This document shows, piece by piece, positions 1,135 to 59,240 of a stretch of DNA of 64,000 bases. The number at the start of each line of letters is the position of its first letter. The first letter of the stretch is position 1. Source of the DNA: an uncultured Candidatus Saccharibacteria bacterium. Lineage in GTDB: Bacteria; Patescibacteriota; CAZHWT01. The stretch spans positions 177,232 to 241,231 of the forward strand of contig CAZQWH010000002.1 of NCBI GenBank assembly GCA_964597145.1. The letters are read 5' to 3'. Under the pieces are notes generated by a model that saw nothing but the letters and a program-made list of their open reading frames with translations, was not told where the DNA came from and searched no databases. A program made the translations under genes and the position numbers.

Positions 1135-3987
1135 TTATGAATCTGATTTACTTGGATTGTGCTGCCGGGGAGGTAAAATAATTTCCCCACTTGAGCCCGA
1201 AGTGGCTATGTGGCGAATCTGAGAATACCCTACTCCACCAGGCACTCCTTGGATCACTCGTGGTGTAACCCGATGGGGTCGGCTCACTTCATCCGATGGG
1301 GATGATGCCTCAGAATTCACCACCACCTTCGAAGCAGCTCCATCATGCTTGGTTTGGTTAAGATGACCATTCGACGCAATTCGACGCTCTGTCTTGGGCC
1401 TAATAACCGTCTCCGCTGGCGCCGACTCGGCTAGTTGATCATCTACTACTGCAGGCAAATCATTGGTAGCCTCTGCGGCAATTACTCCAGTATGGCTTGC
1501 ATTGCTTACGCCACTGCCAGATAATCGCTCTTGTTCCGCCTTTTGACGCAAAGTGGTAATAATTGTGCGAGCTTCATGGGGATTATAGTTAAATTTCTTA
1601 ATATTCCACTTCGCAATCTTTTCCTCCACTTCAGTTACAGGAGTAGCATAGACCCGACGAGAATGTTCAATAATTGCTTGGCGGTGCCCCTCGTGTCGGG
1701 CAATTGGCGGTAAGGTTGCGGCGCTAAACGGACGCGATTCCATTCCGTCAATCATCAGCTTGAGATAAATATGATGCTTCTCTAAGCTAACTAAATCTTC
1801 AGCTGCAAATACTGGTGCAAACTGGCTAGCCAAAGTCGCCGCATCATTTGGACCAACCGTAAACGCAATCGTACTGCCCACGTTACCAAATACTGCCTGT
1901 CGAACTGCCTCAGGCATTTGATCTATAAACTGGTGGGTAATAATTAGGTTAAGCCGATACTTACGAGCCTCAGACAATATTTCGGCAAATGAATCGGTCG
2001 CAAAGTTTTGGAACTCATCAGCATATACGTAAAAATCTCGCCGCTGGTCTTCCGGCATATTAACCCGTGTCATCGCTGCGCTCTTGAGCCGGGCAATAAT
2101 CATAGATCCCAGTAAAGCCGAGTTATCATTACCAATCTTACCCTTCGAAAGATTAACGAGCAAAATCTTGCCTTCGTTCATGATTTCATCAATCTTAATC
2201 GTCGACTTTGATTGACCCATGATATTTCTAATGGTGGATGTCTGCAGGAACTGGCCAACTTTATTTTGAATTGGCGACACAGCTTCGGTAATCAATCGGT
2301 CATTTGAGGACATCTTGGCATATTCGACCTGCCAAAAAGCCCGGAGTTGCTCATCCTCAAGCCCGCTAACCACAAACCTACGGTAGTCCTTGTCGAGCAA
2401 TAGTCGGTTCACTCCCAGCAATGTGCTGTTGGGAGTCTCAGCTAACGTCAGGAAGCAGTTACGGAGTAAATATTCTAATCGAGGCCCCCATGAGTCAAAG
2501 GTCCGCTTAAACACATCAACCATGGCTGAAGCAGTGAGATTTTTTTGTGTCGGATCGATAAGCTCCAGCATATTCAGACTCACCGGATTTGCCGCATCGG
2601 ATGGGTCAAATAGAACGACATCCTTAACCCTCTCTTCAGGTATATTATCCAGCAACTTTTCAATCATATCCCCGTGCGGATCCATCACGGCGACACCTTC
2701 GCCAGCCAAAATATCTTGTAGCACCATATTCTCCATCAAAGTCGACTTACCTGTACCAGTTTTTCCAATCATGTACATGTGCCGACGACGATCTGCTCGA
2801 TTAATCCCAAATTTTACTTCTCGATTACGGAAAGCCGTTTTAGCAAAAACGGTATCAACATCTTGCGGCAAATCTAAAGGCGGTTCGGCCTGCTTTGCTT
2901 TACTCCAAGCAATGGTTGGCGTTTCTACCGACAGATTAGGCAAATGATAAATGGAGGCTAACTCTTCTGCATTAAGCACAAAGTAGTTCTCATCATCGCC
3001 AGGGAAAATACGCCCTTGATACTCATGAAAAATTTCTTCAGCCCGGCGCTCTACCGGAGAAGGGCGAAAGCTATTGAGGTGAGTCATAGAAAACTGCTTC
3101 AACGAAGCCATAATCGAAGCCAGCGCTTGCTGTGAACCCTGTTCGGTTTGGCTAATCGAAACAATCCGCAAGGAGGTTTCAAACCCCAGTTTGGTCATTT
3201 TATTCTCAATTGCTTTCAGCTCTAGTTCCTGGCCAGAACTAAGCTTGGGTGGCCCTTCAGGCTTCTTCTCCTCAGCCGTCGATCCAACCGCCGTCGATAA
3301 AATCCACAATGGCATCGTAATCAACTCATTAACAATACTTTTGATCACCGAAGCAATAAAATTCTCTTGCGGCTCTAAAGACTTACCACTACGAATTTTT
3401 TCCACATACTCATAACCAGCTTCTTGCCAAATATCATCGAGAGGGCGCAGCAGAATTTGCATCCAGACTTGTTCACCCGGATTTAAACGCTCTACCGAAC
3501 CAGTAATAGCAGCCAAAGGATCGACTTGAAAATCAACGAAAGTTTTAATTGGGTAGAAATACTCTTTATTCAACGTAACTTCGGCCGCGGTCACGATCGC
3601 AGTGTTAGAACTAAAGTGGTGGGCGTAATCAATTTCCACCTCAGAAATTTGAGCCGTTGGATACTGCGCGTAAATTTGACCTTCAACAAAAGTCCGGAAG
3701 TAAGTTGGCAGATAAACGTAAAACCGAATCCCATCGTTAGTCGCCACAATTTCAAAACTAAGATGCTCTTGTAGTCCTGGAGTTTTAGATAATAAGCCAT
3801 GCAAAGAGGCGAACATCATTTCGGCGGATAACGGAGTTTTGTCGTTAAGTTTTGGAACCAGAATGGACAATAAAGTGCCCGTAGCAATCTCTTGCGGCTC
3901 TTCTACTTCTTCCACTCGTCGGCCAGCCACAGTCCAGGCAACCAGGATGGTTCCAGTGACAAATAAGGCAAGTACCAGCAATAACAT
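1135..3987 (-). CDS. Membrane-anchored P-loop ATPase of the FtsK/HerA/TraD-VirD4 (DUF87/AAA_10-like) type; possible type IV secretion or conjugative-transfer ATPase
   Basis: N-terminal hydrophobic segment (LLLVLALFVTGTILVAWTVAG). Walker A is MYMIGKTGTGKST and Walker-B-like is FYVYADEFQNF. 950 aa. The sub-family is inferred. Confidence 0.55.
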   Translation of the reverse strand: MLLLVLALFVTGTILVAWTVAGRRVEEVEEPQEIATGTLLSILVPKLNDKTPLSAEMMFASLHGLLSKTPGLQEHLSFEIVATNDGIRFYVYLPTYFRTFVEGQIYAQYPTAQISEVEIDYAHHFSSNTAIVTAAEVTLNKEYFYPIKTFVDFQVDPLAAITGSVERLNPGEQVWMQILLRPLDDIWQEAGYEYVEKIRSGKSLEPQENFIASVIKSIVNELITMPLWILSTAVGSTAEEKKPEGPPKLSSGQELELKAIENKMTKLGFETSLRIVSISQTEQGSQQALASIMASLKQFSMTHLNSFRPSPVERRAEEIFHEYQGRIFPGDDENYFVLNAEELASIYHLPNLSVETPTIAWSKAKQAEPPLDLPQDVDTVFAKTAFRNREVKFGINRADRRRHMYMIGKTGTGKSTLMENMVLQDILAGEGVAVMDPHGDMIEKLLDNIPEERVKDVVLFDPSDAANPVSLNMLELIDPTQKNLTASAMVDVFKRTFDSWGPRLEYLLRNCFLTLAETPNSTLLGVNRLLLDKDYRRFVVSGLEDEQLRAFWQVEYAKMSSNDRLITEAVSPIQNKVGQFLQTSTIRNIMGQSKSTIKIDEIMNEGKILLVNLSKGKIGNDNSALLGSMIIARLKSAAMTRVNMPEDQRRDFYVYADEFQNFATDSFAEILSEARKYRLNLIITHQFIDQMPEAVRQAVFGNVGSTIAFTVGPNDAATLASQFAPVFAAEDLVSLEKHHIYLKLMIDGMESRPFSAATLPPIARHEGHRQAIIEHSRRVYATPVTEVEEKIAKWNIKKFNYNPHEARTIITTLRQKAEQERLSGSGVSNASHTGVIAAEATNDLPAVVDDQLAESAPAETVIRPKTERRIASNGHLNQTKHDGAASKVVVNSEASSPSDEVSRPHRVTPRVIQGVPGGVGYSQIRHIATSGSSGEIILPPRQHNPSKSDS

Positions 3988-8578: not shown

Positions 8579-9274
8579 TTAATTTACAGGGTTAAGTTGA
8601 TCAATAAACAATTGAAGTTCAGAGGGTAGTGGTGCGTTAAATTCCATTTTTTGCTGTGAGGTAGGATGAAAAAATCCAAGCCGAGCAGCATGCAAAAACT
8701 GCCGCATGCCGGTTGTATCTTTGCGTCGACCATATACCCGGTCGCCTACCAGCGGGTAGCCCATGGCAAAGAGATGGACTCGAGCTTGGTGGGTTCGCCC
8801 TGTATACAGCTTTAAGCGCAGCCGACTAACTGGCTCGTCGTGGTATGTATAAACCTGCTCTCGCCACATCTCAGTTTTAGCCTCTCGTCCTCCATGGTTA
8901 GCCACCACAAATTTATACCCTAGGCTGGGATGGCGCAAAATAGGTGCATCTACTAGTGCATGGGCGTCTATAAATCGCCCCCATACCAATGCCATATATT
9001 CCTTCTCCGTCAGCCGGTGTGCAAATTGACGCTGCAACTCTTTTTGAGCCACCGCCGTTTTGGCCACCACCATCACTCCCGAGGTGTCTCGGTCTAATCG
9101 GTGCACTATCCCCTGCCGCTCTAGCCCAGGAACCTCAGGGAGTAATTCATCTAGGGTTGGTTCAGTGTGAGTATGACTTTTCTGTACAATAAGCCCGGCA
9201 GGCTTATGAATAACCAGGATCTCATCGTCTTGATATAAAATTGGCGGAAAGTCGATTTTTTCAGGATTGCTCAT
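8579..9274 (-). CDS. RluA-family pseudouridine synthase
   Basis: Catalytic motif HRLDRDTSGVMVVAKT. Confidence 0.85.
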   Translation of the reverse strand: MSNPEKIDFPPILYQDDEILVIHKPAGLIVQKSHTHTEPTLDELLPEVPGLERQGIVHRLDRDTSGVMVVAKTAVAQKELQRQFAHRLTEKEYMALVWGRFIDAHALVDAPILRHPSLGYKFVVANHGGREAKTEMWREQVYTYHDEPVSRLRLKLYTGRTHQARVHLFAMGYPLVGDRVYGRRKDTTGMRQFLHAARLGFFHPTSQQKMEFNAPLPSELQLFIDQLNPVN

Positions 9275-9719: not shown

Positions 9720-11915
9720 CTAGGCAACATTACGAAACTGTTGGGGGTGTTTAGCCATTGTAGCGGCTTGGGTTTTACTAACAGGAAGAGTAAAAAGGAA
9801 GGACGCGCCTCGGCCCTCTTGGCTTTCAATCCAAATTTTACCTTTAGATAATTTAATAATTTGCAAACATAAGTACAAACCCAACCCTGTACCCGGAATA
9901 GAAGTAGACGATTCCAATCGGGAAAACTTCTGAAAGAGCTTTTCTTGATCAGTCCGACTTATCCCCGGCCCGTTATCCAAAACCCTCACAATAACTTGCG
10001 AGCCACGATGGGTGAAATCCACCTTAATCTTGCCGCCAGGTGGTGTGAATTTTAACGCATTCCCAACCAAATTAGTCAGTACTTGGTAAATTTTAGTCGG
10101 ATCACAGTCAACTAGTGGCAAAGCTCTCGTCTTCTTCAACGTCAGTTGCTGGTTTTGCTGCACAGCGCGCTCCTGTAAGTCATCCACCACGTCTTGAGCT
10201 AATCGATTAAGATTAGTCGGTTCAATTGATAGCTCTACTCTACCCGATTCAATTCGGGAAACATCCAACGTATCGTTGACCATCGTAATTAACCGCTCGG
10301 TCGAAACGTATGCCCGGCTCATATAATCTACAAACTTAGCGTCGCGTTTTTTACCATGCATCGCCATCCACAAATATCCTTTAATCGAAGTCAACGGCGT
10401 CCGCAGCTCATGAGAAGTCACCGAGATAAACTCATCCTTAAGCTCATCCAACTGGCGTAATTTCTGGTTATTTTTTGACAACTTATCATTAGCCACCTGC
10501 AAATCCTTAGTAGCTTTTTTGACTTCGTGTTCCAGCGTAACATTAAATTCACTTATCTGTTGATAGCTCCGGGCATTATCTAAGGTTACGGCCAGCTCTG
10601 GACCAAGTATTTCTAAGAGTCTCATATCTTTATCTTGATAAAGATCCCCAGATAATTTTTCACCCAACAACAGTAATCCTTGCAGCTCATCACTAGCCAA
10701 TAAAGGGACGACAATGGTGAGTTTCATTTTATGCAGTATTTGTTTAATATCCTTATCGTTCTCTTCGTCATAGACCAAGACTTTTTTAACCTGCGCAAAC
10801 CGGTAGAGTTGTTGGCTCTGCAATCCAGACCGGTCGTCAAACCCATATGTTGCGACAGGTGTAAGTTGATCACCCTTAACCACCACAAATGCACCTCTCG
10901 AGATATGCATCGTACGTAATAATTCCTGGAGGCTCTTTTGGGTTAGATCTTCTAGTTTTAATGTGCTTGCCATAAGGTGAGTTAAACGTGAAAGTAGTTG
11001 ATTAGAATCGTATTGGGCTCTGTAGAAAATTTGATCAGTGGCTTTAATCAGGATTTCTTTTAGTGGTTGAAAAGTTATAGAGACAAATATTGCCAGGCAA
11101 GCATAAATTAAGATTTGGCTAGATTGAAATTGTCCATCAAAAAATAGGGTACTAAAGGCAAAAACCACCAAAGTATAGGCAACGATCAATATAGCAACCA
11201 GCAACGAATAGGCAACCGTTCGAGCCACCACAAGCCGTATATCAAACAAACGGTGACGAACAATTGCGTAGGTGATTGAGCTAACAAGAACTAAGGCAAG
11301 TAGCGGAGTCAAACGAACTCCTTGCCAGCTAGGTACAAGTAACGGTGTGATGCCATTATTCAGTATGGCAATACCAAAGGTTATAGTGGCCCCGAATAAA
11401 ATAAAATCTATTTGCGTTCTTTCTAACGAAGTAGAAGTTTTTTTAGCCGCGATTAATTGCCACAATGCGGCTGCCAACATACCGACAAGCAGCAGCAAAT
11501 AAGGCATATACCCCACTCCCGAATTTATACTAACAATACTTGCTTCCCGGGTAAGTGAGGCAAATACAAGGCTGGATGCCGAAAAAATCGTTCCTGGTAG
11601 CCACAATGCCGCTACAGCTACCACAAAGGTTTGCTTTTGGGGATGTTTTTTGCCAAAACATGCACTAAATAGCAGTAGCCAAAATAAAATATTAAATGCC
11701 GCAGCTGGTGCAATATGAGCCGCAAGGATGACAGAGAGCGAAGTAGTCCCCGATGAATAAATTATAAAATTAGTCACGATCCAGGTGACAATTGATAAAC
11801 AAAGTAGGAGGAAATACCTGCTCATTGCGGATTTAGGATTCCGCAAATACACTAAACCACCAAGTATGGTCATTGTGATTCCCGATAATACCAGGATGAG
11901 CAGGTAGATAATCAT
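9720..11915 (-). CDS. Sensor histidine kinase: multi-TM N-terminal sensor, GAF-like domain, HisKA, HATPase_c
   Basis: H-box SHELRTPLTSIKGY; N/G boxes LDNGPGI and GTGLGLYL; about 7 N-terminal hydrophobic helices. Confidence 0.9.
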   Translation of the reverse strand: MIIYLLILVLSGITMTILGGLVYLRNPKSAMSRYFLLLCLSIVTWIVTNFIIYSSGTTSLSVILAAHIAPAAAFNILFWLLLFSACFGKKHPQKQTFVVAVAALWLPGTIFSASSLVFASLTREASIVSINSGVGYMPYLLLLVGMLAAALWQLIAAKKTSTSLERTQIDFILFGATITFGIAILNNGITPLLVPSWQGVRLTPLLALVLVSSITYAIVRHRLFDIRLVVARTVAYSLLVAILIVAYTLVVFAFSTLFFDGQFQSSQILIYACLAIFVSITFQPLKEILIKATDQIFYRAQYDSNQLLSRLTHLMASTLKLEDLTQKSLQELLRTMHISRGAFVVVKGDQLTPVATYGFDDRSGLQSQQLYRFAQVKKVLVYDEENDKDIKQILHKMKLTIVVPLLASDELQGLLLLGEKLSGDLYQDKDMRLLEILGPELAVTLDNARSYQQISEFNVTLEHEVKKATKDLQVANDKLSKNNQKLRQLDELKDEFISVTSHELRTPLTSIKGYLWMAMHGKKRDAKFVDYMSRAYVSTERLITMVNDTLDVSRIESGRVELSIEPTNLNRLAQDVVDDLQERAVQQNQQLTLKKTRALPLVDCDPTKIYQVLTNLVGNALKFTPPGGKIKVDFTHRGSQVIVRVLDNGPGISRTDQEKLFQKFSRLESSTSIPGTGLGLYLCLQIIKLSKGKIWIESQEGRGASFLFTLPVSKTQAATMAKHPQQFRNVA

Positions 11916-32694: not shown

Positions 32695-32879
32695 AGACTC
32701 GTATTATATCAGAAATATGGACGGGACAGCGCTACGGCCGTACCGTTAGTCAACGGCGGTGAATCTACACTACTACGATGCTGCCGTGAGCAACTTCGTG
32801 CACGAATAAGGAGAGTAGCACCCCTCTTGATCGAGCTCCAACCAAGATCCGCCAAAGAATAAAGGCGTATTGTAATTGC

Positions 32880-33707
32880 GTTCGCCGAACGGTTATCCCT
32901 TGACGTTCGACTTTATTTTTACTTTTTTTGGTTAGATTGAACTTGGTGACTGCCTCGAATTACTCAAAAGTTAGATGATCAATTTTCTTAAGATCACGTT
33001 GATAATTGGCCTGATCAAGAACAAACCTCATGTAGTCACGCGGTGATTTGAAATCCTCAAGAATACAGGATGTATTTATATTGTTAGTCGAACTGAGATT
33101 GCAGTAGTGGCGGAAAGACGACCATGGGTACTCAACAATCTCTCTATCATTACTGACTATGGATGCTGAGTATGGATTGAGATGGATGTAGCGGGAAACA
33201 TGTAGCAGTTGTTGACTTGTTTCTATATGGACGGCTTTAAATACACCTTCAAATACCGATCCTTTACGTTGGTGTTTTAAGTTGAATCGATGCGAGATGC
33301 TGCTTTGCACCATCCTCATATAATCGTATATACCATCATCAACTTCCTGCCGAACAAGCAGATGAAAATGATTTGACATAAGGCAATACGATACAAGCGA
33401 TATCCTACCCAGTGATTGTTGTCGCCTCATATCTATTGATACTCTTGAATCCAAGTTTTGAGCTAGATAGTACGATAGTCGTAGGGATTTGTCTGAGGAT
33501 AGGTAAAAATTCATTGCGCTTAGCGCCAGCTTATATTCTCTAGCACTAGTGAATATTTGTCGTCTATCAATCCCCCGATTAAAAATGTGATAGTAATTAC
33601 CCGTTATGAATGGTGGCTGCACAACGTATCCTCCTGAATGGCAGCTACATAACTGAGACTTATAGACTATAAACTATCGAACGTCAAGAGATAACCGTTC
33701 GGCGAAC
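32880..33707. mobile_element. Transposase-only unit: Y1 tyrosine-transposase (RAYT/IS200-like) gene between 31-bp inverted repeats with one mismatch (32880-32910 gttcgccgaacggttatcccttgacgttcga; 33677-33707)
   Basis: Inverted repeats read directly; each contains the hairpin GTTCG-C-CGAAC. Confidence 0.7.
32960..33622 (-). CDS. Y1 (HuH) tyrosine transposase, RAYT/IS200-like
   Basis: YHIFNRG..., HuH motif NHFHLLV, catalytic Tyr region SRYIHLNP. Confidence 0.75.
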   Translation of the reverse strand: MQPPFITGNYYHIFNRGIDRRQIFTSAREYKLALSAMNFYLSSDKSLRLSYYLAQNLDSRVSIDMRRQQSLGRISLVSYCLMSNHFHLLVRQEVDDGIYDYMRMVQSSISHRFNLKHQRKGSVFEGVFKAVHIETSQQLLHVSRYIHLNPYSASIVSNDREIVEYPWSSFRHYCNLSSTNNINTSCILEDFKSPRDYMRFVLDQANYQRDLKKIDHLTFE

Positions 33708-33885
33708 GTGGTTTCATTGAAAGTCAAAATCGCACAACTATTTAATTTCTAAGTTGTGTACATAACTTTCAAAAATTAAGCTGTCCACTATGACAGCTTA
33801 GAATTAACTCAAAGTATCTTATTAACCCCATACCCGCTCAATTTATATAAATACCTTAAAATATTAATGCCTGTTTCGTTGCTAT

Positions 33886-35466
33886 CTAGTTATCACCTAG
33901 GTAAACAATATATCCTACGTTCTTATTGCCCTTATTAGCTAATTTGAACCTCTCATAGACTTTAATTACAACCTTGCTGAGTAAATACGACTTCTGAGAC
34001 TCGACATTTCCAACTTCTTCTAGCCATTTTGGAGGCTTATTCAGAAAGGATTCCAGTAGCTCCTGATTATCTGAAAAGGCTTCTACTTTAATATCAAAAT
34101 TGCTTTTATTAGCTGGAGTTTCATCATCAACTGCAAGTGGAGAATAAATATGCAAAGTTCCAAGCTTCTCAGTATCTATTACTAGCACTTCAGTGCGCGA
34201 ACGCATATTCAATCTTGCTTCAAATACCGGAATCACCTTATTTTGATGCTTATAAATTCCTATAAAATTTGAAAGGCCTGCTTCCGGGTATAATGTTACA
34301 TCTAGCTGCCATTTCTCTGTAAATGATTCTATCTTCCCGTAGCCAAAAGTAGATCTACTTAGGACGATTAAAATTGGGTTACTACAAAGCCTTATCGCTC
34401 CATCGATTGATCCATCATACTTAATACTACTTTCGTATATTTCATTGAATAGTTGGATATTTTCACCTTGGGCAATATTTTGCCCAAAATTTTCGCCCCA
34501 GTTTACATATGATACATGCCAGTTATCAAAGAAAACTGCTTTGTCATCCACCCTTGATATACCTGCTCTAAGGACTTTCCCCTTATATTTCTTATTTGTT
34601 TCATCTTTCAATTTCTGGTAATAGTCAAAAAGTGACCTCATATAGGATGCTCTAGAAAACGCCTTCTGAACATCAATCTTGAAATCCTCTATCTTCTTTG
34701 TGCTTATTGGCTTTGACCGTTCAGTTTCCAGGATTAGCTTTTTTGCTTCGATTGCTAGGTTTTCCAAGGTTGGTATTACACTACTTCTCACTAATGACTT
34801 ATCTAAGCTCAACTCTCTAAATAATTGCTCGTCTTCTTCCATTCCAAGAGCGACTTGTTTTAAGCCTTCTATCGAGTACGTTATGTCACTTAGCTGGTCA
34901 GTATTAAAGCCAGATAAATTGAAAGTCGCATGGGGAGTTGTCACAAATGATCTCAGCATTAATACGATGAAATACTCTTTTACATAAATACCGCTTCCAT
35001 GATGTCCCTCCCAAAAATCAAAATCTCTCCTGCCCGAAATCCTTCTAAAATAGTAGTTAATAATGTCGGATAACGCTGATGGGTGTATATCGTCACTCAT
35101 CCAAATTGTATCGGAGTCAGCAGGCTGTTTGTAGTCAAGCATTAACTTTATGAACTTGTACTGCTTCTTAAATAGACAATATGCACCGACTGCAAATACT
35201 TGTGATCGTAAGTTTGTATATTTGTACAATTCCTCAGCATTGCGTGATAATTTACCTGCAACTTTAATAGCTTCCTGTTGTTTCTCCTGCAGCAAATATG
35301 GTTCGACTAGCTTTTTTAGTTCTGCAAGCTGCTTTTGCCAGTTTCTAAGCTCTTCAGCAGAATTAATAAGATTTAAGGACTTCTCTAAATCATTTGTTAC
35401 TTGCCTAATCTTTTCGTCGTCAGCCTGTTTTCCACGTCTCCTAAGATCACTACTTAGATCCCACAC
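33886..35466 (-). CDS. Hypothetical protein (526 aa), soluble, N-terminal coiled-coil; AT-rich island gene 4 of 4
   Basis: Long ORF in a roughly 32% GC region. No P-loop or known catalytic motif found by eye. Confidence 0.55.
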   Translation of the reverse strand: MWDLSSDLRRRGKQADDEKIRQVTNDLEKSLNLINSAEELRNWQKQLAELKKLVEPYLLQEKQQEAIKVAGKLSRNAEELYKYTNLRSQVFAVGAYCLFKKQYKFIKLMLDYKQPADSDTIWMSDDIHPSALSDIINYYFRRISGRRDFDFWEGHHGSGIYVKEYFIVLMLRSFVTTPHATFNLSGFNTDQLSDITYSIEGLKQVALGMEEDEQLFRELSLDKSLVRSSVIPTLENLAIEAKKLILETERSKPISTKKIEDFKIDVQKAFSRASYMRSLFDYYQKLKDETNKKYKGKVLRAGISRVDDKAVFFDNWHVSYVNWGENFGQNIAQGENIQLFNEIYESSIKYDGSIDGAIRLCSNPILIVLSRSTFGYGKIESFTEKWQLDVTLYPEAGLSNFIGIYKHQNKVIPVFEARLNMRSRTEVLVIDTEKLGTLHIYSPLAVDDETPANKSNFDIKVEAFSDNQELLESFLNKPPKWLEEVGNVESQKSYLLSKVVIKVYERFKLANKGNKNVGYIVYLGDN

Positions 35467-35540
35467 ACTTTTACTCTCAAGTGGACCGTGCCACCGTCAA
35501 TAAGAGATGATACAAAGTATATAAATAGCTTTTCCTGACC

Positions 35541-36830
35541 CTACCTAATAATTGACCTAAGATTTCCTAATAGGTATGCATCGAAGGTTGGTAGATATTC
35601 CAACCGAAACTCAGCCTCTGTCCTTCCAAACTTATCGAAAACTGTTTCGATATACCAATCAATAGCAGCAACATACATAGAAGATTTAGAATGCAGCGCC
35701 GAATCTTGAGCAATAGTACTCAACCGTCGCAATATTAGCTGAATATACAAGCCTCTGCCCTCTTGCTTGCTAAAATAAATTAGGAGCCTTATGAGGCTAT
35801 AAAGTGATTTTCTACTGATATCATCAGCTGCCTGCCCAGCATTGTACACACGAATAAATTGCTGGATTGTTGAGGTGTAGGTAATTAGATATCGATCAGG
35901 ATCATATCGTAAGCGTAGATTGGCTTCATCTGCATAGTTGATATCTTGGTCATCTGATGACAAATCGAGAGCATCATCTGAAGCATTTTCTTTGTTCGTT
36001 CGCTTCCCTGAACTCTTATGTTCCCCCATGTTATAGATTAAAAAGAAATCGTCACTTAGAATGAACGGCTCAATTTCCTCCAAGCTTCCTTCAGGTACAA
36101 CTAGCTTAGTTATACTCTCTAATTCTGGCAGACTCTCTTCTAGCAACGCCTTTAGGTTAGACCTCTCTGCTTCTGAGACAAGGATGTCACCGTAGCCCTC
36201 AATTAAATCTAAATAAACTTGCTTATTCCTTTTACGCAATGCAACTTGCAATGCTTTATTTATCTCTCGCTTTATCCTCTCCTGATCTAGCGTGTAGGTA
36301 TACAACCTATTTAAATACTGAGCGAAAGCTACCAGCCCTGCCAACAAGAGGATCAATAGCAAAAATGTGATTGCCCTTTGAACGTTCCCAGTCAAGCTAG
36401 CATCATTCAAAAATAGTCTTGATCCCAATGAGAGGCTGACAATTACCAAAAACAGCGGTATCAACCACTGCATTTGCCACTCGTTTAGCAGGCGCTTTCT
36501 AAGCACTCTGGTTCTGGCATAAGATCGCGAGACTTTATCTAGAGTTTCTATGCCAAGTGGCACCGCTATGGCAAGCACTACTCCAATAAATGCACCTAAA
36601 TCGGAGATAAATTGCAACTGTGGCCTGAATAATGCCTCCTTTAAGCCGCTTGCAAATTCTACAGTTATGAATTCAGGCCTAGCTATATCTGCTACTAGTA
36701 TCAGAAGTACTAAAAAATAGATAAGGATCGTTAGTAAAATAACAGAAACTAGTCGACCATAAAACGAAGCAATCACCCCTTTTGCGTAGCCAATAATTTT
36801 GTCAATCTCTAGCTTATTCATCTTCGTCAA
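35541..36830 (-). CDS. Hypothetical membrane protein (429 aa): about 5 N-terminal TM helices plus a roughly 230-aa cytoplasmic domain; island gene 3 of 4
   Basis: Hydrophobicity pattern; overlaps the upstream gene by 17 bp. Confidence 0.55.
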   Translation of the reverse strand: MTKMNKLEIDKIIGYAKGVIASFYGRLVSVILLTILIYFLVLLILVADIARPEFITVEFASGLKEALFRPQLQFISDLGAFIGVVLAIAVPLGIETLDKVSRSYARTRVLRKRLLNEWQMQWLIPLFLVIVSLSLGSRLFLNDASLTGNVQRAITFLLLILLLAGLVAFAQYLNRLYTYTLDQERIKREINKALQVALRKRNKQVYLDLIEGYGDILVSEAERSNLKALLEESLPELESITKLVVPEGSLEEIEPFILSDDFFLIYNMGEHKSSGKRTNKENASDDALDLSSDDQDINYADEANLRLRYDPDRYLITYTSTIQQFIRVYNAGQAADDISRKSLYSLIRLLIYFSKQEGRGLYIQLILRRLSTIAQDSALHSKSSMYVAAIDWYIETVFDKFGRTEAEFRLEYLPTFDAYLLGNLRSIIR

Positions 36831-37629
36831 CTCTGGCTTTTTCGCCCTCCAGTGGTGATGTTACATAGTCAATAAACTGATCTCCAATCTCTGTTGCAAG
36901 CGATTGGCCATATTGGAGAGGATTTCCTTTTGCAGTACTAACCGCTATGTAAAGTCCATCAAAGCTAGTTTCTTGACGCCCAGGCATGCGTGTAGCAATG
37001 TGCCCCATTTCTTCCAATGGGTATGACAATATCAGTCCATCACTCATTAAATCTCGGATATATTGGAGTTCAATATAATCCTCAATTACTATATCCGGAT
37101 GAGCCTTAAGTAGTTCAGTTTTAGGATGACCCACATGACGGGTAGTAAGGTTTCCCCAATCCCACCTAGGGGCATCATGATGAAGCTTAAGCATCCTTAT
37201 ATGTCCATACGTGAGTCGGTCAATATGGTTATAAAAAATGGCTTGCAGATCATCGTTAAGGGTTGAAGGCAATACGGTATTAACAACTGCATTCCGCAAC
37301 AAAGCTCGCTTTTCTTCAGCTGTGGTTCGCTGCGAAATACTTACAGCCTGCAATACTGCGGTTGTAAATTGCTCATTTTTTACAATATCTTCAATCGATA
37401 CTCTTCCTTGGCTTTTTAGCTCCTCTAAATCACTTAGCACTCCTTCAAGCAATACATTTGTCCGACGTTGCATAGGCGGAGTAAGATACTGCTGAAACAG
37501 TCCGCTAACAACATTGCCCGAACCAGGCAAGAGATGTAATTCAGAAAACTGGGACAATCCAGCAGATATCAATAACGCCATAAAGTCTTCTAAACTGGGC
37601 TTTGGCAATCTTTCGAGGCTATTCGACAT
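36814..37629 (-). CDS. Hypothetical soluble protein (271 aa); island gene 2 of 4
   Basis: ORF with no recognisable motif. Confidence 0.5.
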   Translation of the reverse strand: MSNSLERLPKPSLEDFMALLISAGLSQFSELHLLPGSGNVVSGLFQQYLTPPMQRRTNVLLEGVLSDLEELKSQGRVSIEDIVKNEQFTTAVLQAVSISQRTTAEEKRALLRNAVVNTVLPSTLNDDLQAIFYNHIDRLTYGHIRMLKLHHDAPRWDWGNLTTRHVGHPKTELLKAHPDIVIEDYIELQYIRDLMSDGLILSYPLEEMGHIATRMPGRQETSFDGLYIAVSTAKGNPLQYGQSLATEIGDQFIDYVTSPLEGEKARVDEDE

Positions 37630-37786
37630 AGACCCAATATACCACTGAGAATCAACTGCGATGATGGATTGCTTGGAATAGTCAATTCGCTGTTTACACA
37701 GCCTACTTAATCTTCGTCATCGATGATAAATTCTTCTGGAGTAGTACCCTTTTGAACTGTCGTAGACATTCTCAACCTCCCTTCTC

Positions 37787-38251
37787 TCACTTAAGTAAGA
37801 CCACTGCTATTACTGAAAGGATAAATAACACTGAAAGCAAGGCATAGGCGAGCTTGTTTAGACGATCAGTTGCCTCTGCATAGAAGTTAAATAGTTGAAC
37901 ACGTCGAGTCAGTTTGATGTTATACGGGCTATCACTAGTCTCCCCAGTGCTGTCACCCTTATCAATCATTTCATTCGGAGATTTTATATCCTTATATTCA
38001 TGCATCTTTATCTGATTCTCTCTAGATTTTTTAGCCGTAACTAAGCTTAAAAAATGAACCGCTAAAGTAATTATTCCTAAAACGATTCCAGCCTGCACTA
38101 AAATGTTCGTTAAATTAGAGCTGCTAGGTAATACAAAGAAGATTCCGGTGATAAAAACAGTTATCACTTGCGTTGCGAGGGTATCCAGCTGAGTTGAGCT
38201 TTCTCGATAACCTGAAATGGCGTTTTTTAACTTTTCGTTTTGGGCTTCCAT
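37787..38251 (-). CDS. Hypothetical small membrane protein (154 aa, 3 TM); island gene 1 of 4
   Basis: Hydrophobic segments at about 25-50, 55-75 and 130-152. Confidence 0.5.
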   Translation of the reverse strand: MEAQNEKLKNAISGYRESSTQLDTLATQVITVFITGIFFVLPSSSNLTNILVQAGIVLGIITLAVHFLSLVTAKKSRENQIKMHEYKDIKSPNEMIDKGDSTGETSDSPYNIKLTRRVQLFNFYAEATDRLNKLAYALLSVLFILSVIAVVLLK

Positions 38252-38663
38252 ATAACATTTATCTCCATATAGCTAATAGGCCTAAGTTGTTCTAGGCTTC
38301 TATTACTATTTTAATCTAGGCTTCGGAGAGTTTTATATGTTTATTTCAGTTAACAAAAAACTTTATTATAGTTTTGGCTTTTGTAATAACAAATTTATAC
38401 AAAAAACAATATTATATCTGGGTGCTGCGAGCGGTGGTGCAGTCGTTGTAGCTACTCGTCTTAATCGATCTAGTCTGCTCATTAAGACCTAGAGTGGACT
38501 ATTCGGCCTGCATTATCTCTAGCTGTAATTGTCCGAGTCTTGCGCGGTTTAGGGGCGATGAATTCAAATGATAACTTTAAAGTTGGGAAGCTATACCCAC
38601 CATCCCGATTTTGAGACTCATAACCAACCTATTGTAACAGAGGAAAGTAAGTTTGTTGTATAG

Positions 38664-39299
38664 TTGTACCTAATGAACGACTATATTAAAAAAACAATTA
38701 TGGCGTATGATGACACAAAAACCTATGAGAACAGTACCCGTTTACTTGTTCCAAAAGTTGAACTGAACGAGTTTGTTTCAATGCTGCCATCAGGTTTAAT
38801 GGTGTTGGACGCTGGGTGTGCATTTGGCCGGGATACAGAATTCCTAAAGGCAAAAGGCGTTACTGTACGTGGTATAGATTTATCACCAGCATTGATAGGA
38901 CGTGCAAAGGAGCTGGTTCCTGATACAGACTTTGAAGTGAAAGATATTCGTAAAACTGGTTTCACTGATGAGCAGTTTGACGGAATATGGTGCAATGCCA
39001 CATTACTGCATTTAAAAGACGAAGATATTGCAGTAGCCCTCGCAGAGTTTAAACGCATCATGAAGCCAGGCGGAGTTCTGGCTGTATCGCTTAAGAAGGG
39101 AGAAGGGACTCAGCAGTTTGTAGAAAAATTTAGCAGTAAATCGGAGCGATTCTTCAACTTTCAGACTCACGAAACGTTCCTTGAACAGTTACAACGAGTA
39201 GGACTCGAAGAGGTCAGCTGGCACTACCTAAATGAGCGTGAACGGTATGGCCAAGATAAGCGTGACCTTGACTGGCTGTACTCATTTTCCAAAAAGTAG
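38664..39299 (+). CDS. Class I SAM-dependent methyltransferase (Methyltransf_11/25-like, probably small-molecule)
   Basis: Motif I VLDAGCAFGRD, post-I acidic residue (GIDLS), motif II/III region DGIWCNATLLHL...MKPGGVL. Confidence 0.75.
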   Translation: MYLMNDYIKKTIMAYDDTKTYENSTRLLVPKVELNEFVSMLPSGLMVLDAGCAFGRDTEFLKAKGVTVRGIDLSPALIGRAKELVPDTDFEVKDIRKTGFTDEQFDGIWCNATLLHLKDEDIAVALAEFKRIMKPGGVLAVSLKKGEGTQQFVEKFSSKSERFFNFQTHETFLEQLQRVGLEEVSWHYLNERERYGQDKRDLDWLYSFSKK

Positions 39300-39858
39300 C
39301 GCTCTACCTGTTATATAAATAGCCACCTGTCTCTGTCAAGTCTTTCTACGAATTCCCTTAGGCTAATGGTTACTACCCAACGTCAATGGCCCTTTCTCAG
39401 CCAACGCACGTTCTCATGGCATGCTGCAATCGTATACTTGGTAAATATAAGCAGATAGTAGATAAACCGAAGTAATTAACTAATGGATAACGAATTGTCT
39501 AGGTTGGATGTAGGCATGAAAAATCCCGGGTTAACGTACCGGGAGCTCAGTCGAGCCTACGCTGAGTTTCCTCAGGTGCAATTCCTCGGGCCTTATTTAC
39601 CTTCAGGGGTTGTGCTAGAGGTATCCGATGATCGAGTGGTAGATACGGCAGTTGACCCTCCACCATCAAACAACACTAGAATTAGCAAGAACCATCCCCA
39701 GCTAAATTCTATGGTTGGATGCAGGTAGACAAAAACTATGTACACGAGTGCCATACGTCTCTCTCCTTATGTACAGAATCGTTGCTTTAAAACCGCTCCA
39801 AGCCGCATTATATACCACTCAGACAACATTCATAGACTTGTCATAAAATCACATATAT

Positions 39859-53897: not shown

Positions 53898-53935
53898 AAC
53901 ACCTCGGGAGTGTTAATCCCAGTACACCATTACAG
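53898..53935 (+). repeat. Solo REP-like hairpin repeat (taacacctcgggagtgttaatcccagtacaccatta), homologous to the terminal repeats of the 58.4-59.2 kb transposase unit
   Basis: About 85% identity to 58353-58388; hairpin ACACC-tcggg-GGTGT. Confidence 0.65.
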
Positions 53936-57808: not shown

Positions 57809-58309
57809 TTATAACTCACCGGATGTTACCACATCGGGAGTGGTTATCTCATCCAGCTTGCCAACAATTCCGCCAGCATATTGAAAGGTGTATATATCCT
57901 TACCGCCTCGAGTAATTATTTCATCACCTTGAAAACAATCGACCGTACCGCGGCCACGACAAGTGTATTGATATTCACCATAATCCCTATAGACAGACTT
58001 CCAGATACGGGTAGTATCCCAGTTGTCTAATAGAGCTTTGCGCAACATTAAATCAGCCTCTGCCTCGGTCATTTTAGTAAAATCGCCAAAGTATGACATC
58101 GACCACATCGGAGTTCCTCCAATGTATATAGTCTCAATTCCCGGAAATATCCCATTTCCAATAGTGTAAATATCTCGATACAACCAATCACCATCAACAT
58201 ACTCAAGCTGCTTTGCCCCCGCCAAAAGCGACTCAACCTTCCCCCCTCCCGAAGCATAAGTTTGCGTCCGAGCCCGTAACAAAAATGATATAAGAAGACC
58301 TTTATTCAT
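57809..58309 (-). CDS. Hypothetical protein (166 aa) with a hydrophobic N-terminus
   Basis: ORF only. Confidence 0.45.
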   Translation of the reverse strand: MNKGLLISFLLRARTQTYASGGGKVESLLAGAKQLEYVDGDWLYRDIYTIGNGIFPGIETIYIGGTPMWSMSYFGDFTKMTEAEADLMLRKALLDNWDTTRIWKSVYRDYGEYQYTCRGRGTVDCFQGDEIITRGGKDIYTFQYAGGIVGKLDEITTPDVVTSGEL

Positions 58310-58352
58310 AAATACAAGCTTATCATATTATCAAATCCCCATCAGGGATGAT

Positions 58353-59201
58353 ATTACACCTCGGGGGTGTTTATCTCAGTACACCATTTTTTATATGCTC
58401 CATCCGACTCCCGGCATTATCCAGGATAGCCTCAACTATCTACGTCTATGAACAATTTCTGATTGTTGTGAAGGGATTTTTGATAGTCCGCATTGTCAAG
58501 TACAAACTCACGGTATGACTGGGTGGTTTCAAATGAGCTCAAAATACTCCCTGAGTCCACGAGCGGACCGTCATCTTGCCTATGCACCATCGATGACATT
58601 GAAGACCACTTAAAATCACAAATATCTTCTTGATGACGAACAATTCCTGAGGTGAATGGATTTAAATGAATATAGCGAGAGGTGTGGAGAAGTTGCCGTT
58701 CTGATTCCACTTTCACTGTTCTAAAAGCGCTCTCAAATAATGGTCCTCTGCGATGGTGATAGTCGTTAAAGTATCGAACAAAACTATTTTGGAATCTACC
58801 AATAAATATACTTATACCATTCTCTGCTTCTTGTCTGAGCAAGAAATGGAAGTGGTTGGGCATAAAGCAATAACTTAGTATGCTCACCAGCACTGGAGAA
58901 TATTTTAAAGTCCTGAGCGTATGATTTTTTGAGTTGTGTGTCTGGGAAAGAAAGTGCGAAAGTCGGATCGGCGGATTTGCATACCGATAATATTCAACAG
59001 CCTTCAAGGCCCTACTGCATTCTCTCGAACTAGTAAATATAGGCTGACGCTCAATGGATCGATTGAACGTGTGATAGACGTCGCCATTATGTAAAAGCGT
59101 TTTTCGATACGGCATACCAGACCTTTCTGGGCAGCATCGTATGTTGCTTATACCAGCCAGCATGAAATGGTGTCAAGAGATAAACACCCCCGAGGTGTAA
59201 T
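58353..59201. mobile_element. Second transposase-only unit: Y1/RAYT-like gene between perfect 25-bp inverted REP-like repeats (attacacctcgggggtgtttatctc)
   Basis: 58353-58377 and its exact reverse complement at 59177-59201. Confidence 0.75.
58432..59163 (-). CDS. Y1 (HuH) tyrosine transposase, RAYT/IS200-like; diverged paralogue of 32960..33622
   Basis: YHTFNRS..., PNHFHFLL (HuH), SRYIHLNP (Tyr). Confidence 0.75.
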   Translation of the reverse strand: MLAGISNIRCCPERSGMPYRKTLLHNGDVYHTFNRSIERQPIFTSSRECSRALKAVEYYRYANPPIRLSHFLSQTHNSKNHTLRTLKYSPVLVSILSYCFMPNHFHFLLRQEAENGISIFIGRFQNSFVRYFNDYHHRRGPLFESAFRTVKVESERQLLHTSRYIHLNPFTSGIVRHQEDICDFKWSSMSSMVHRQDDGPLVDSGSILSSFETTQSYREFVLDNADYQKSLHNNQKLFIDVDS

Positions 59202-59240
59202 ATATGTATGCTAATTATTGAATAGAAAAGATTGATATCC

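Follow-up and report, generated by a model that had tools for sequence, protein, structure and literature searches.

Two loci in a stretch of 64,000 nucleotides from an uncultured Candidatus Saccharibacteria bacterium (contig CAZQWH010000002.1; hereafter the window) each contain one gene for a Y1/HuH enzyme, a transposase-like protein with a single catalytic tyrosine and a histidine-hydrophobic-histidine motif, lying between inverted copies of a short hairpin repeat. We consider it likely that each of these two units is a locus of the REPtron/TIRtron type, in which a class 2 Y1 HuH enzyme has its own cognate site on either side of its gene, in inverted orientation. A REPtron is a tnpA-REP or RAYT (REP-associated tyrosine transposase) gene flanked by inverted REPs, that is, repetitive extragenic palindromes (Nunvar 2010, PMC2817692; Ton-Hoang 2012, PMC3333891; Bertels & Rainey 2011, PMC3116915). 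TIRtrons and their enzymes, the TIRYTs (Di Nocera 2013, PMC3733652), correspond to TnpAY1 subclass 2.1 (Quentin 2018, PMC6006769) and to the Group 1 RAYTs (Bertels 2017, PMC5581495). The coordinates of the units are collected in Table 1.

The open reading frame (ORF) of unit 1 is intact, and its start is a GTG with AGGAGG upstream. It lies between the two copies of a 32-bp inverted repeat with one mismatch (type 1; 32879-32910 / 33677-33708), for which the initial annotation of this DNA had given the right number of mismatches and a length of 31 bp. The 3'-side copy reads as a CGTTC-gcc-GAACG hairpin followed by G TTATCCC TTGAC and then by GTTCGA, the 5' stem arm again. The ORF of unit 2, as listed, runs from 58432 to an ATG at 59163 on the minus strand (243 aa). 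Its true start is most likely M17, at 59115, because the NCBI call for a protein in the same 90% cluster (P0122) is 227 aa long and the family alignment begins at this residue. Its inverted repeat (type 2) was annotated as perfect over 25 bp; it is indeed perfect, over 27 bp (58351-58377 / 59177-59203), and can be extended to 38 bp with three mismatches (58351-58388 / 59166-59203). The ACACC-tcggg-GGTGT hairpin described in it at the outset is there, followed in the 3'-side copy by TTATCTC, agtAC and ACCATT. Four independent Logan assemblies of the same population (L004, L005, L091 and L216) have contigs that break inside this 3'-side hairpin, at about 58351-58377, which hints at strain variation or at a repeat-induced branch of the assembly graph at this point.

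A further copy of the type 2 repeat, first annotated at 53898-53935 as a solo repeat without a transposase, proved to be real and is now placed at 53899-53931. It is most similar to the 3'-side version of unit 2 and sits in a 900-bp stretch without a long ORF. No remnant of a decayed transposase gene was detected beside the solo copy or elsewhere in the window, whether by tblastn with the 31 family proteins or by a hidden Markov model (HMM) search in six frames. Two other type 2-like matches were discarded as chance: one at 9073-9087, within a 231-aa ORF and without the remainder of the repeat, and one at 57829, with four mismatches and also inside an ORF.

Table 1. Positions of the genes and repeats of the two units, of the solo repeat, and of the hairpins flanking the Beckwithbacteria homologue L015
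Feature	Position	Strand	Remarks
Unit 1 Y1/HuH transposase-like gene	32960..33622	-	220 aa; NHFH 84-87, Tyr 145 in RYIHLNP, WSS 167-169
Unit 1 type 1 repeat, 3' side of gene	32879..32910	+	32-bp inverted repeat
Unit 1 type 1 repeat, 5' side of gene	33677..33708	-	partner of 32879-32910
Unit 2 Y1/HuH transposase-like gene	58432..59115	-	227 aa from likely start M17
Unit 2 type 2 repeat, 3' side of gene	58351..58388	+	inverted repeat with 59166-59203
Unit 2 type 2 repeat, 5' side of gene	59166..59203	-	partner of 58351-58388
Solo type 2 repeat (ACACCTCGGGAGTGTTAATCCCAGTACACCATT)	53899..53931	+	intergenic; 3 mismatches to 33-mer
L015 hairpin ATCACACACCSGGTGTGTGAT, flanks of gene	L015:9950-9972 and 10679-10701		

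The arrangement of a gene between its own inverted hairpin repeats recurs across the protein family. The window protein has 3393 homologues in a collection clustered at 90%, and those that carry a name are almost all from Patescibacteria (Levy-, Woese-, Beckwithbacteria and others). A survey of flanking sequences, restricted to one genome per species, covered 80 loci with 93 gene copies. A flanking inverted repeat scoring at least 13 was found for 58 of the 93 gene copies and for 13 of 778 random intervals of the same size from the same loci (1.7%); at a score of at least 17 the figures were 42/93 and 0/778. Stems of at least 7 bp were present in the 120 nt upstream of 48% of gene starts and in the 120 nt past 39% of gene ends, compared with 6% at random. 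The hairpin sequence differs between loci, and even between two genes within one locus. The initial description of each gene as REPtron-like, with its own inverted hairpin repeat, thus stands, the repeats being beyond chance and family-wide. It might still be argued that chance similarity accounts for the solo copy and for the inverted repeats, the genes being two ordinary pseudo-elements of the IS200 insertion sequence (IS) family, given that a 5-bp hairpin by itself is common. However, both ORFs are intact with all catalytic residues, a search of the window with the type 1 31-mer returned two matches against 0.00 expected (100 shuffles), and shuffles likewise predicted no match to the type 2 repeat. 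The shuffles and the control intervals refute this explanation, to which we give practically no credence.

The taxonomic labels of the surveyed loci were mixed. Titles named Patescibacteria lineages for 44 of the 80 loci, and three loci come from archaeal metagenome-assembled genomes (MAGs). Another 28 (within L010-L088) come from third-party-annotation (TPA) MAGs titled 'uncultured Gammaproteobacteria' or 'Pseudomonadales', labels that look doubtful in a family otherwise from Patescibacteria. Clade homologues with flanking hairpins also occur on contigs binned as archaeal, namely L040 and L059 (Nanoarchaeia MAGs) and L047 (a Bathyarchaeia MAG), and the hairpin core of L040 (ACACCtcgggGGTGT) is identical to that of the window's type 2 repeat. 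These could reflect mis-binning, or transfer between bacteria of the candidate phyla radiation (CPR) and DPANN archaea.

The two window proteins are 40% identical over 205 aa (E 4e-55) and both pass the gathering score of 23 of the Pfam family Y1_Tnp (PF01797), with 32.6 and 26.8 bits; this family was matched by all 31 members of the clade that we aligned. In the 31-sequence alignment, H85 and H87 (the HuH motif, NHFH), Y145 (in RYIHLNP), N149 and P150 are invariant, as are an N-terminal YHxxN and the SS of the WSS motif after the tyrosine helix, the W being nearly so. The two genes are therefore what they were first taken for, diverged and intact Y1/HuH genes with the HuH motif and the catalytic tyrosine. 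In both proteins the tyrosine motif is YIHLNP, of the type Y---NP that marks class 2, the RAYT side, whereas the IS200 motif is Y---Q (Quentin 2018, PMC6006769). This motif and the structural model described below support an assignment of both genes to HuH/Y1 enzymes of the RAYT class 2 type and not of the IS200 type.

An AlphaFold2 (AF2) model of the unit 1 protein, built on the 31-homologue alignment, was confident, with a mean predicted local distance difference test score (pLDDT) of 91.2. The model's top match among solved structures was 4ER8, E. coli TnpA-REP bound to a REP hairpin (E 2.2e-7, template modelling (TM) score 0.70 on the target), whereas the IS608 and ISDra2 transposases gave E values of about 3e-4, about a thousand-fold weaker, with a Foldseek probability of 1.00 to all three alike. 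A single-sequence phmmer search against the PDB returned noise only, so that the family profile and the predicted structure were needed to obtain PDB matches. With the profile, the first match was again 4er8, the HuH motif and the tyrosine aligning with its HMH and YIYINP. The comparison with IS200/IS605 TnpA and RAYTs that had been proposed for these proteins thus puts them nearer to the RAYTs, by fold and profile match as well as by motif. The complete motif set, NHFH, YIHLNP, WSS and FQNS(Y/F) in unit 2 and in the consensus (VQSS in unit 1), in proteins of 220-227 aa, fits subclass 2.1/Group 1 RAYT/TIRYT most closely, an agreement of motifs only and not a phylogeny. Some 45 additional residues separate the first strand from the HuH strand in this clade, and the protein ends in a helical tail. 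No Bac_DnaA_C, HTH_23 or HTH_28 tail was detected among the 31 clade members at E values up to 1. The nearest homologues outside Patescibacteria are at most 30% identical and of the subclass 2.1/TIRYT type, and a homologue on a Legionella plasmid has a weak DnaA-C/HTH tail. There is no tnpB-sized ORF inside either unit, and Rfam gave no match in or near the units, its sole match in the window being one tRNA-Leu.

In one homologous system, the flanking hairpin forms a large dispersed family. The gene of the Beckwithbacteria homologue L015 (complete genome CP011210), which is 42% identical, lies between copies of a 21-nt hairpin, ATCACACACCSGGTGTGTGAT, and at least 132 exact copies of this hairpin were found in at least 120 stretches of groundwater metagenomes (L092-L211). 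Among the copies listed, only 16 flank a Y1 gene and 116 are solo; 58 are bordered on both sides by 900 bp or more without a gene, and the share located outside long open frames is 68%, compared with 15% for random positions. The copies form at least 64 clusters with unrelated flanks, and the hairpin accompanies at least four diverged Y1 genes that are 33-45% identical to the window protein. A single small dataset, Ga0075704, holds one gene-flanking pair and four solos, on four contigs. This hairpin is thus literally repetitive, extragenic and palindromic. Pairs of it 366-379 bp apart were considered as decayed units or REPIN-like doublets and rejected, as they merely bracket a small, unrelated membrane-protein-like ORF.

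Hairpins were also found inside coding sequence. In distant Patescibacteria homologues (L067, L057, L058, both genes of L061, L065, L070, L082 and L085), one or two copies of the gene's own flanking hairpin lie in frame within the ORF, either upstream of the HuH motif, at about residues 60-76, or directly behind YIHLNP; in L067:9905-10597, for instance, AGGGTCGGACCCT encodes GSDP twice. Such inserts were not seen in the two window genes. Since the L015 hairpin is dispersed and in-frame hairpin copies occur inside genes, the hairpins of this family are mobile as short units and can disperse in the manner of REPs.

We then compared the repeats with one another. Read from the outside towards the gene, types 1 and 2 have a common layout: a 5-bp stem with a loop of 3-5 nt, a conserved (G)TTATCYC-TTGAC linker, and then the 5' stem arm once more, as GTTCGA in type 1 and as ACACCA in type 2. 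A third paralogue from the same samples (P0002, L006; 53% identical) has the same layout with the stem CACTT-acc-AAGTG, so that across the types the stem and its downstream arm copy co-vary and the linker is unchanged. The 5' stem arm recurs 10-12 nt past the hairpin in the window (32879-32910, 58356-58388 and 59166-59198) and at L010, L011, L013, L029 and L053. In the family as a whole, 16 of 107 repeats had a stem-arm copy 5-24 nt after the hairpin; they belong to 11 of 58 elements, for the most part those of the closest relatives. When the pairings were permuted 2000 times, the count averaged 2.6 and never exceeded 8. This third arm creates two mutually exclusive hairpins.

The linker also bears on the expression of the genes. 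In the family, TTGAC follows the hairpin in 17/55 upstream repeats and in only 2/52 downstream repeats, and because of this asymmetry the TTGAC of the upstream copy is probably also the -35 box of the gene. On the minus strand, the inner part of the unit 1 upstream repeat carries TTGACG (33687-33682), followed after 17 nt by TATAAG (33664-33659), and the unit 2 upstream repeat carries TTGACA (59176-59171), followed after 18 nt by TATAAG (59152-59147). The same asymmetry would be expected if the repeats were simply regulatory DNA of a domesticated gene, a -35 box with an insulating hairpin or terminator, and not substrates of the enzyme, the solo copy then being an unrelated or decayed regulatory site. 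The hairpin with its T-rich tail (TTATCTCTT) was indeed flagged as terminator-like on the inward-reading strand, and the hairpins of the window are weak. Yet 27-32 bp of the repeat, non-palindromic parts included, are also present 3' of the gene, a location that calls for no promoter and no inward terminator, and the stems vary from locus to locus while their position is kept. Moreover, the occurrence of a homologue's hairpin at its many unrelated, mostly intergenic sites and in frame inside genes requires a mobilising activity, and the nearest solved structure is that of an enzyme bound to just such a hairpin. We therefore regard a purely regulatory role as improbable.

The positions of the units were compared with those in related genomes. 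The window YchF has named homologues in Patescibacteria, and relatives whose YchF is 81-86% identical keep the order YchF-S6-SSB-S18; none of them has a Y1 gene upstream of YchF, and their upstream regions are all different. A relative with a RecR 80% identical to that of the window has no Y1 gene beside RecR; its own unit lies 7.6 kb away and has another hairpin. In the comparison with related genomes that the initial annotation had suggested, neither unit was thus present at the syntenic position in relatives with YchF or RecR 78-86% identical, and both window units are lineage-specific in position. Contigs L090 and L091 were discarded as related strains, since they are 100% identical to the window and allow no empty-site comparison. 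Synteny with the relatives ends exactly at unit 1, beside a stretch of lower GC content (0.37-0.43 at 33-40 kb, to the right of unit 1; values elsewhere in the window are about 0.40-0.49 and for the most part 0.44-0.48). Unit 1 had been said to abut an AT-rich island, such transposases often marking accessory insertions, and it does lie at the edge of a strain-variable region of lower GC. Such patchy placement resembles that of the horizontally moving Group 1 RAYTs more than that of the vertically inherited Group 2 and Group 3 RAYTs.

The lower-GC stretch itself (33886-39300) contains four ORFs of 154-526 aa without a Pfam match and one methyltransferase gene. Where the window has this stretch, upstream of a conserved YchF promoter (TTCTGATATAATAC), each of three relatives has a different region. 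A gene for a 950-aa ATPase of the DUF87/TrwB type is found close to the window's left end, at 1135-3987 on the minus strand; just beyond that end (L214:9372-10358), two assemblies of the population differ, one of them having a phage-type integrase.

Because the positions of the units are not conserved, and relatives carry Y1 units elsewhere, each unit might instead be an autonomous IS-like element, the whole repeat-to-repeat segment moving together with the gene and the solo copy representing a decayed end or a by-product. Several homologue genes often lie within 20 kb of one another, many homologues are on contigs of about 1 kb, and the window proteins share motifs with Group 1, the most IS-like group of RAYTs (Bertels 2017, PMC5581495). 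Nevertheless, no two copies are alike. Copies within the genome are few and dissimilar, the two in the window being 40% identical and the third gene from the same samples 53% identical, with different hairpins, and near-identical gene copies were found in none of the 80 loci. On direct reading of the sequence, the edges of the repeats showed no target duplication; terminal inverted repeats are absent from IS200/IS605-type Y1 transposons, whose motif is Y---Q; and the listed copies of the L015-type hairpin are far more often solo than gene-flanking. An IS-like element is thus in our view an unlikely description of the two units, though a better one than regulatory DNA.

Several observations weigh against the REPtron/TIRtron interpretation, or at least against its REP-like side. 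In about 87 kb of the source organism or population (the 64-kb window and some 23 kb of Logan contigs), only the flanking copies and the one type 2 solo were found, and no solo copy of type 1. The system therefore looks low-copy over this portion of the source genome, and more TIRtron-like than a REP-rich genome would be. Scans of 185,579 species genomes and of JGI metagenomes with an exact degenerate pattern of the type 2 repeat gave no match, the source genome being absent from both collections. The proteins score 48.2 and 48.3 bits with the NCBIfam model NF047646 (REP_Tyr_transpos), below its cutoff of 80. The GT[AG]G foot is absent 5' of the stems, where the bases are cca/ttg in type 1 and tatt in type 2. 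Folded as DNA, the repeats are weak (-3.8 to -5.3 kcal/mol, z-scores -0.5 to -2.4), a 5-bp stem is found in 48% of random 120-nt windows and is not beyond chance alone, and in type 1 the fold of minimum energy is a different hairpin, CGAACG/CGTTCG, in which the 3' arm pairs with the downstream arm copy across a loop of 12 nt. A consensus sigma-70 promoter scan called no promoter for either unit, the last base of the -10 candidate TATAAG being G in place of the conserved final T. Movement of the whole unit would explain the absence of both units from syntenic sites in relatives no less well than gain and loss would. Finally, the action of the enzymes on their own repeats is, in this clade, predicted by analogy. 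The signal lies in the inverted repeat and in its family-wide recurrence, and not in hairpin energy. As to the initial reading of a REP-associated transposase with REP repeats, the class 2 enzyme, the inverted hairpin repeats, the solo copy and the dispersed hairpin of a homologue bear it out; the missing foot, the 5-bp stems and the subthreshold REP_Tyr_transpos score do not, and in the roughly 87 kb covered neither repeat type was seen to form an abundant REP or BIME family.

These data are most consistent with the following model for the REPtron/TIRtron-type units, which we infer, by analogy with E. coli TnpA-REP and IS200/IS605 TnpA, for cleavage and joining on the repeats, the strand recognised, the promoter role and the origin of the solo copy. 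The enzyme would recognise the small hairpin in single-stranded DNA, cut it with the tyrosine of the YIHLNP helix by means of an HuH-bound metal, and rejoin the strand, occasionally copying or moving a short repeat to an intergenic site elsewhere; the solo copy at 53899 would have arisen in this way. The paralogues have diverged together with their hairpins (CGTTC/GAACG and ACACC/GGTGT), the TTATCYC-TTGAC linker remaining constant.

Patescibacteria (CPR) genomes are small and are generally thought to be poor in repeats. Among transposases that a host retains along with a family of short non-autonomous repeats, the RAYTs with their REPs are, to our knowledge, the ones studied best, and we know of descriptions of RAYT/REP systems almost entirely from Proteobacteria, Cyanobacteria and Bacteroidetes. 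Literature searches combining RAYT or REPIN with Patescibacteria or CPR returned nothing relevant, and the clade, as delimited by its sequences, and its repeats are apparently undescribed in Patescibacteria as far as the searchable literature goes. Taken alone, the window provides one more unremarkable case of an element already known in kind, and the main interest lies in this clade. The occurrence of the same arrangement throughout a large clade of Patescibacteria, with at least one hairpin truly dispersed, extends the phenomenon to very small, host-dependent genomes. It accounts for many Patescibacteria genes that are labelled only 'transposase' and for some assembly breaks, the units serve as landmarks of strain-variable regions, and natural pairs of proteins and hairpins with very different stems could be used to learn how these enzymes read DNA. 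More tentatively, and with somewhat less than even confidence, we propose that Patescibacteria harbour a phylum-wide, fast-diversifying RAYT-like clade in which each paralogue co-evolves with its own short hairpin, the enzymes actively inserting hairpins between genes and even, in frame, within the genes that encode them. The three-arm repeat (an arm, its complement, and the arm again after a fixed linker that holds the -35 box) could then switch between two hairpins, a recognition logic of its own without the GTAG guide.

The REPtron/TIRtron arrangement itself is already known (Ton-Hoang 2012, PMC3333891; Di Nocera 2013, PMC3733652; Quentin 2018, PMC6006769). Like REPtrons, the window units have a single Y1 HuH gene without tnpB between inverted hairpin repeats, the Y---NP motif and, as best structural match, a REPtron enzyme; there are several diverged paralogues, each with its own type of repeat, solo copies occur elsewhere, and in the homologous L015 system the repeat family is large and mostly intergenic. 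Unlike canonical REPs, which have long stems and, in subclasses 2.2, 2.4, 2.5, 2.7 and 2.8, GT[AG]G at the 5' foot of the hairpin (Quentin 2018, PMC6006769), the window repeats have stems of 5 bp and no such foot, and there is one solo copy in about 87 kb where REPs number hundreds per genome. The proteins are 55-60 residues longer than E. coli TnpA-REP (165 aa) and have the additional segment of about 45 residues beyond the first strand as well as the helical C-terminal tail; they stay under the NCBIfam cutoff, and their units are not kept at syntenic sites in relatives.

In its motifs, the clade is closest to the TIRYTs. The key motifs of subclass 2.1 are NH[YF]H, FQ (replacing the W motif), Y[IV]HLNP and SS in the proximal tail, in proteins of about 238 aa (Table 1 of Quentin 2018, PMC6006769), and the clade has the same set at about 220-240 aa. 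As in TIRtrons, the flanking inverted repeats measure tens of bp and are low-copy or single, and the distribution is patchy and apparently horizontal. The 31 members examined here differ from TIRYTs in having no Bac_DnaA_C, HTH_23 or HTH_28 tail. Most TIRYT repeats conform to a GGGGWSAS consensus, although some unrelated, partly palindromic terminal inverted repeats (TIRs) have also been listed (Di Nocera 2013, PMC3733652); the window repeats depart from this consensus, direct reading revealing no GGGGWSAS motif in type 1 or type 2. No REP-like structures were found near subclass 2.1 genes by Quentin 2018 (PMC6006769), the genes being TIR-flanked or REP-less in the literature, whereas the repeats described here have a hairpin as their conserved core, and the hairpin of one homologous system forms a dispersed family.

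With the IS200/IS605 elements IS608 and ISDra2, the window units share the HuH/Tyr fold and, by analogy, would be expected to share the recognition of small hairpins near the ends of the gene. Those elements have their hairpins in sub-terminal positions and lack terminal inverted repeats; their motif is Y---Q, a tnpB gene is frequent and near-identical copies are numerous, whereas the window units have YIHLNP, inverted repeats, copies only 40% identical and no tnpB-sized ORF. In-frame REPs inside tnpA-REP genes have been reported as unique to subclass 2.4, from Cyanobacteria and Bacteroidetes (Quentin 2018, PMC6006769). The distant Patescibacteria homologues resemble that subclass in carrying their own flanking hairpin in frame inside the gene, and differ from it in the sites of the inserts, before HuH (at about residues 60-76) or just after YIHLNP.

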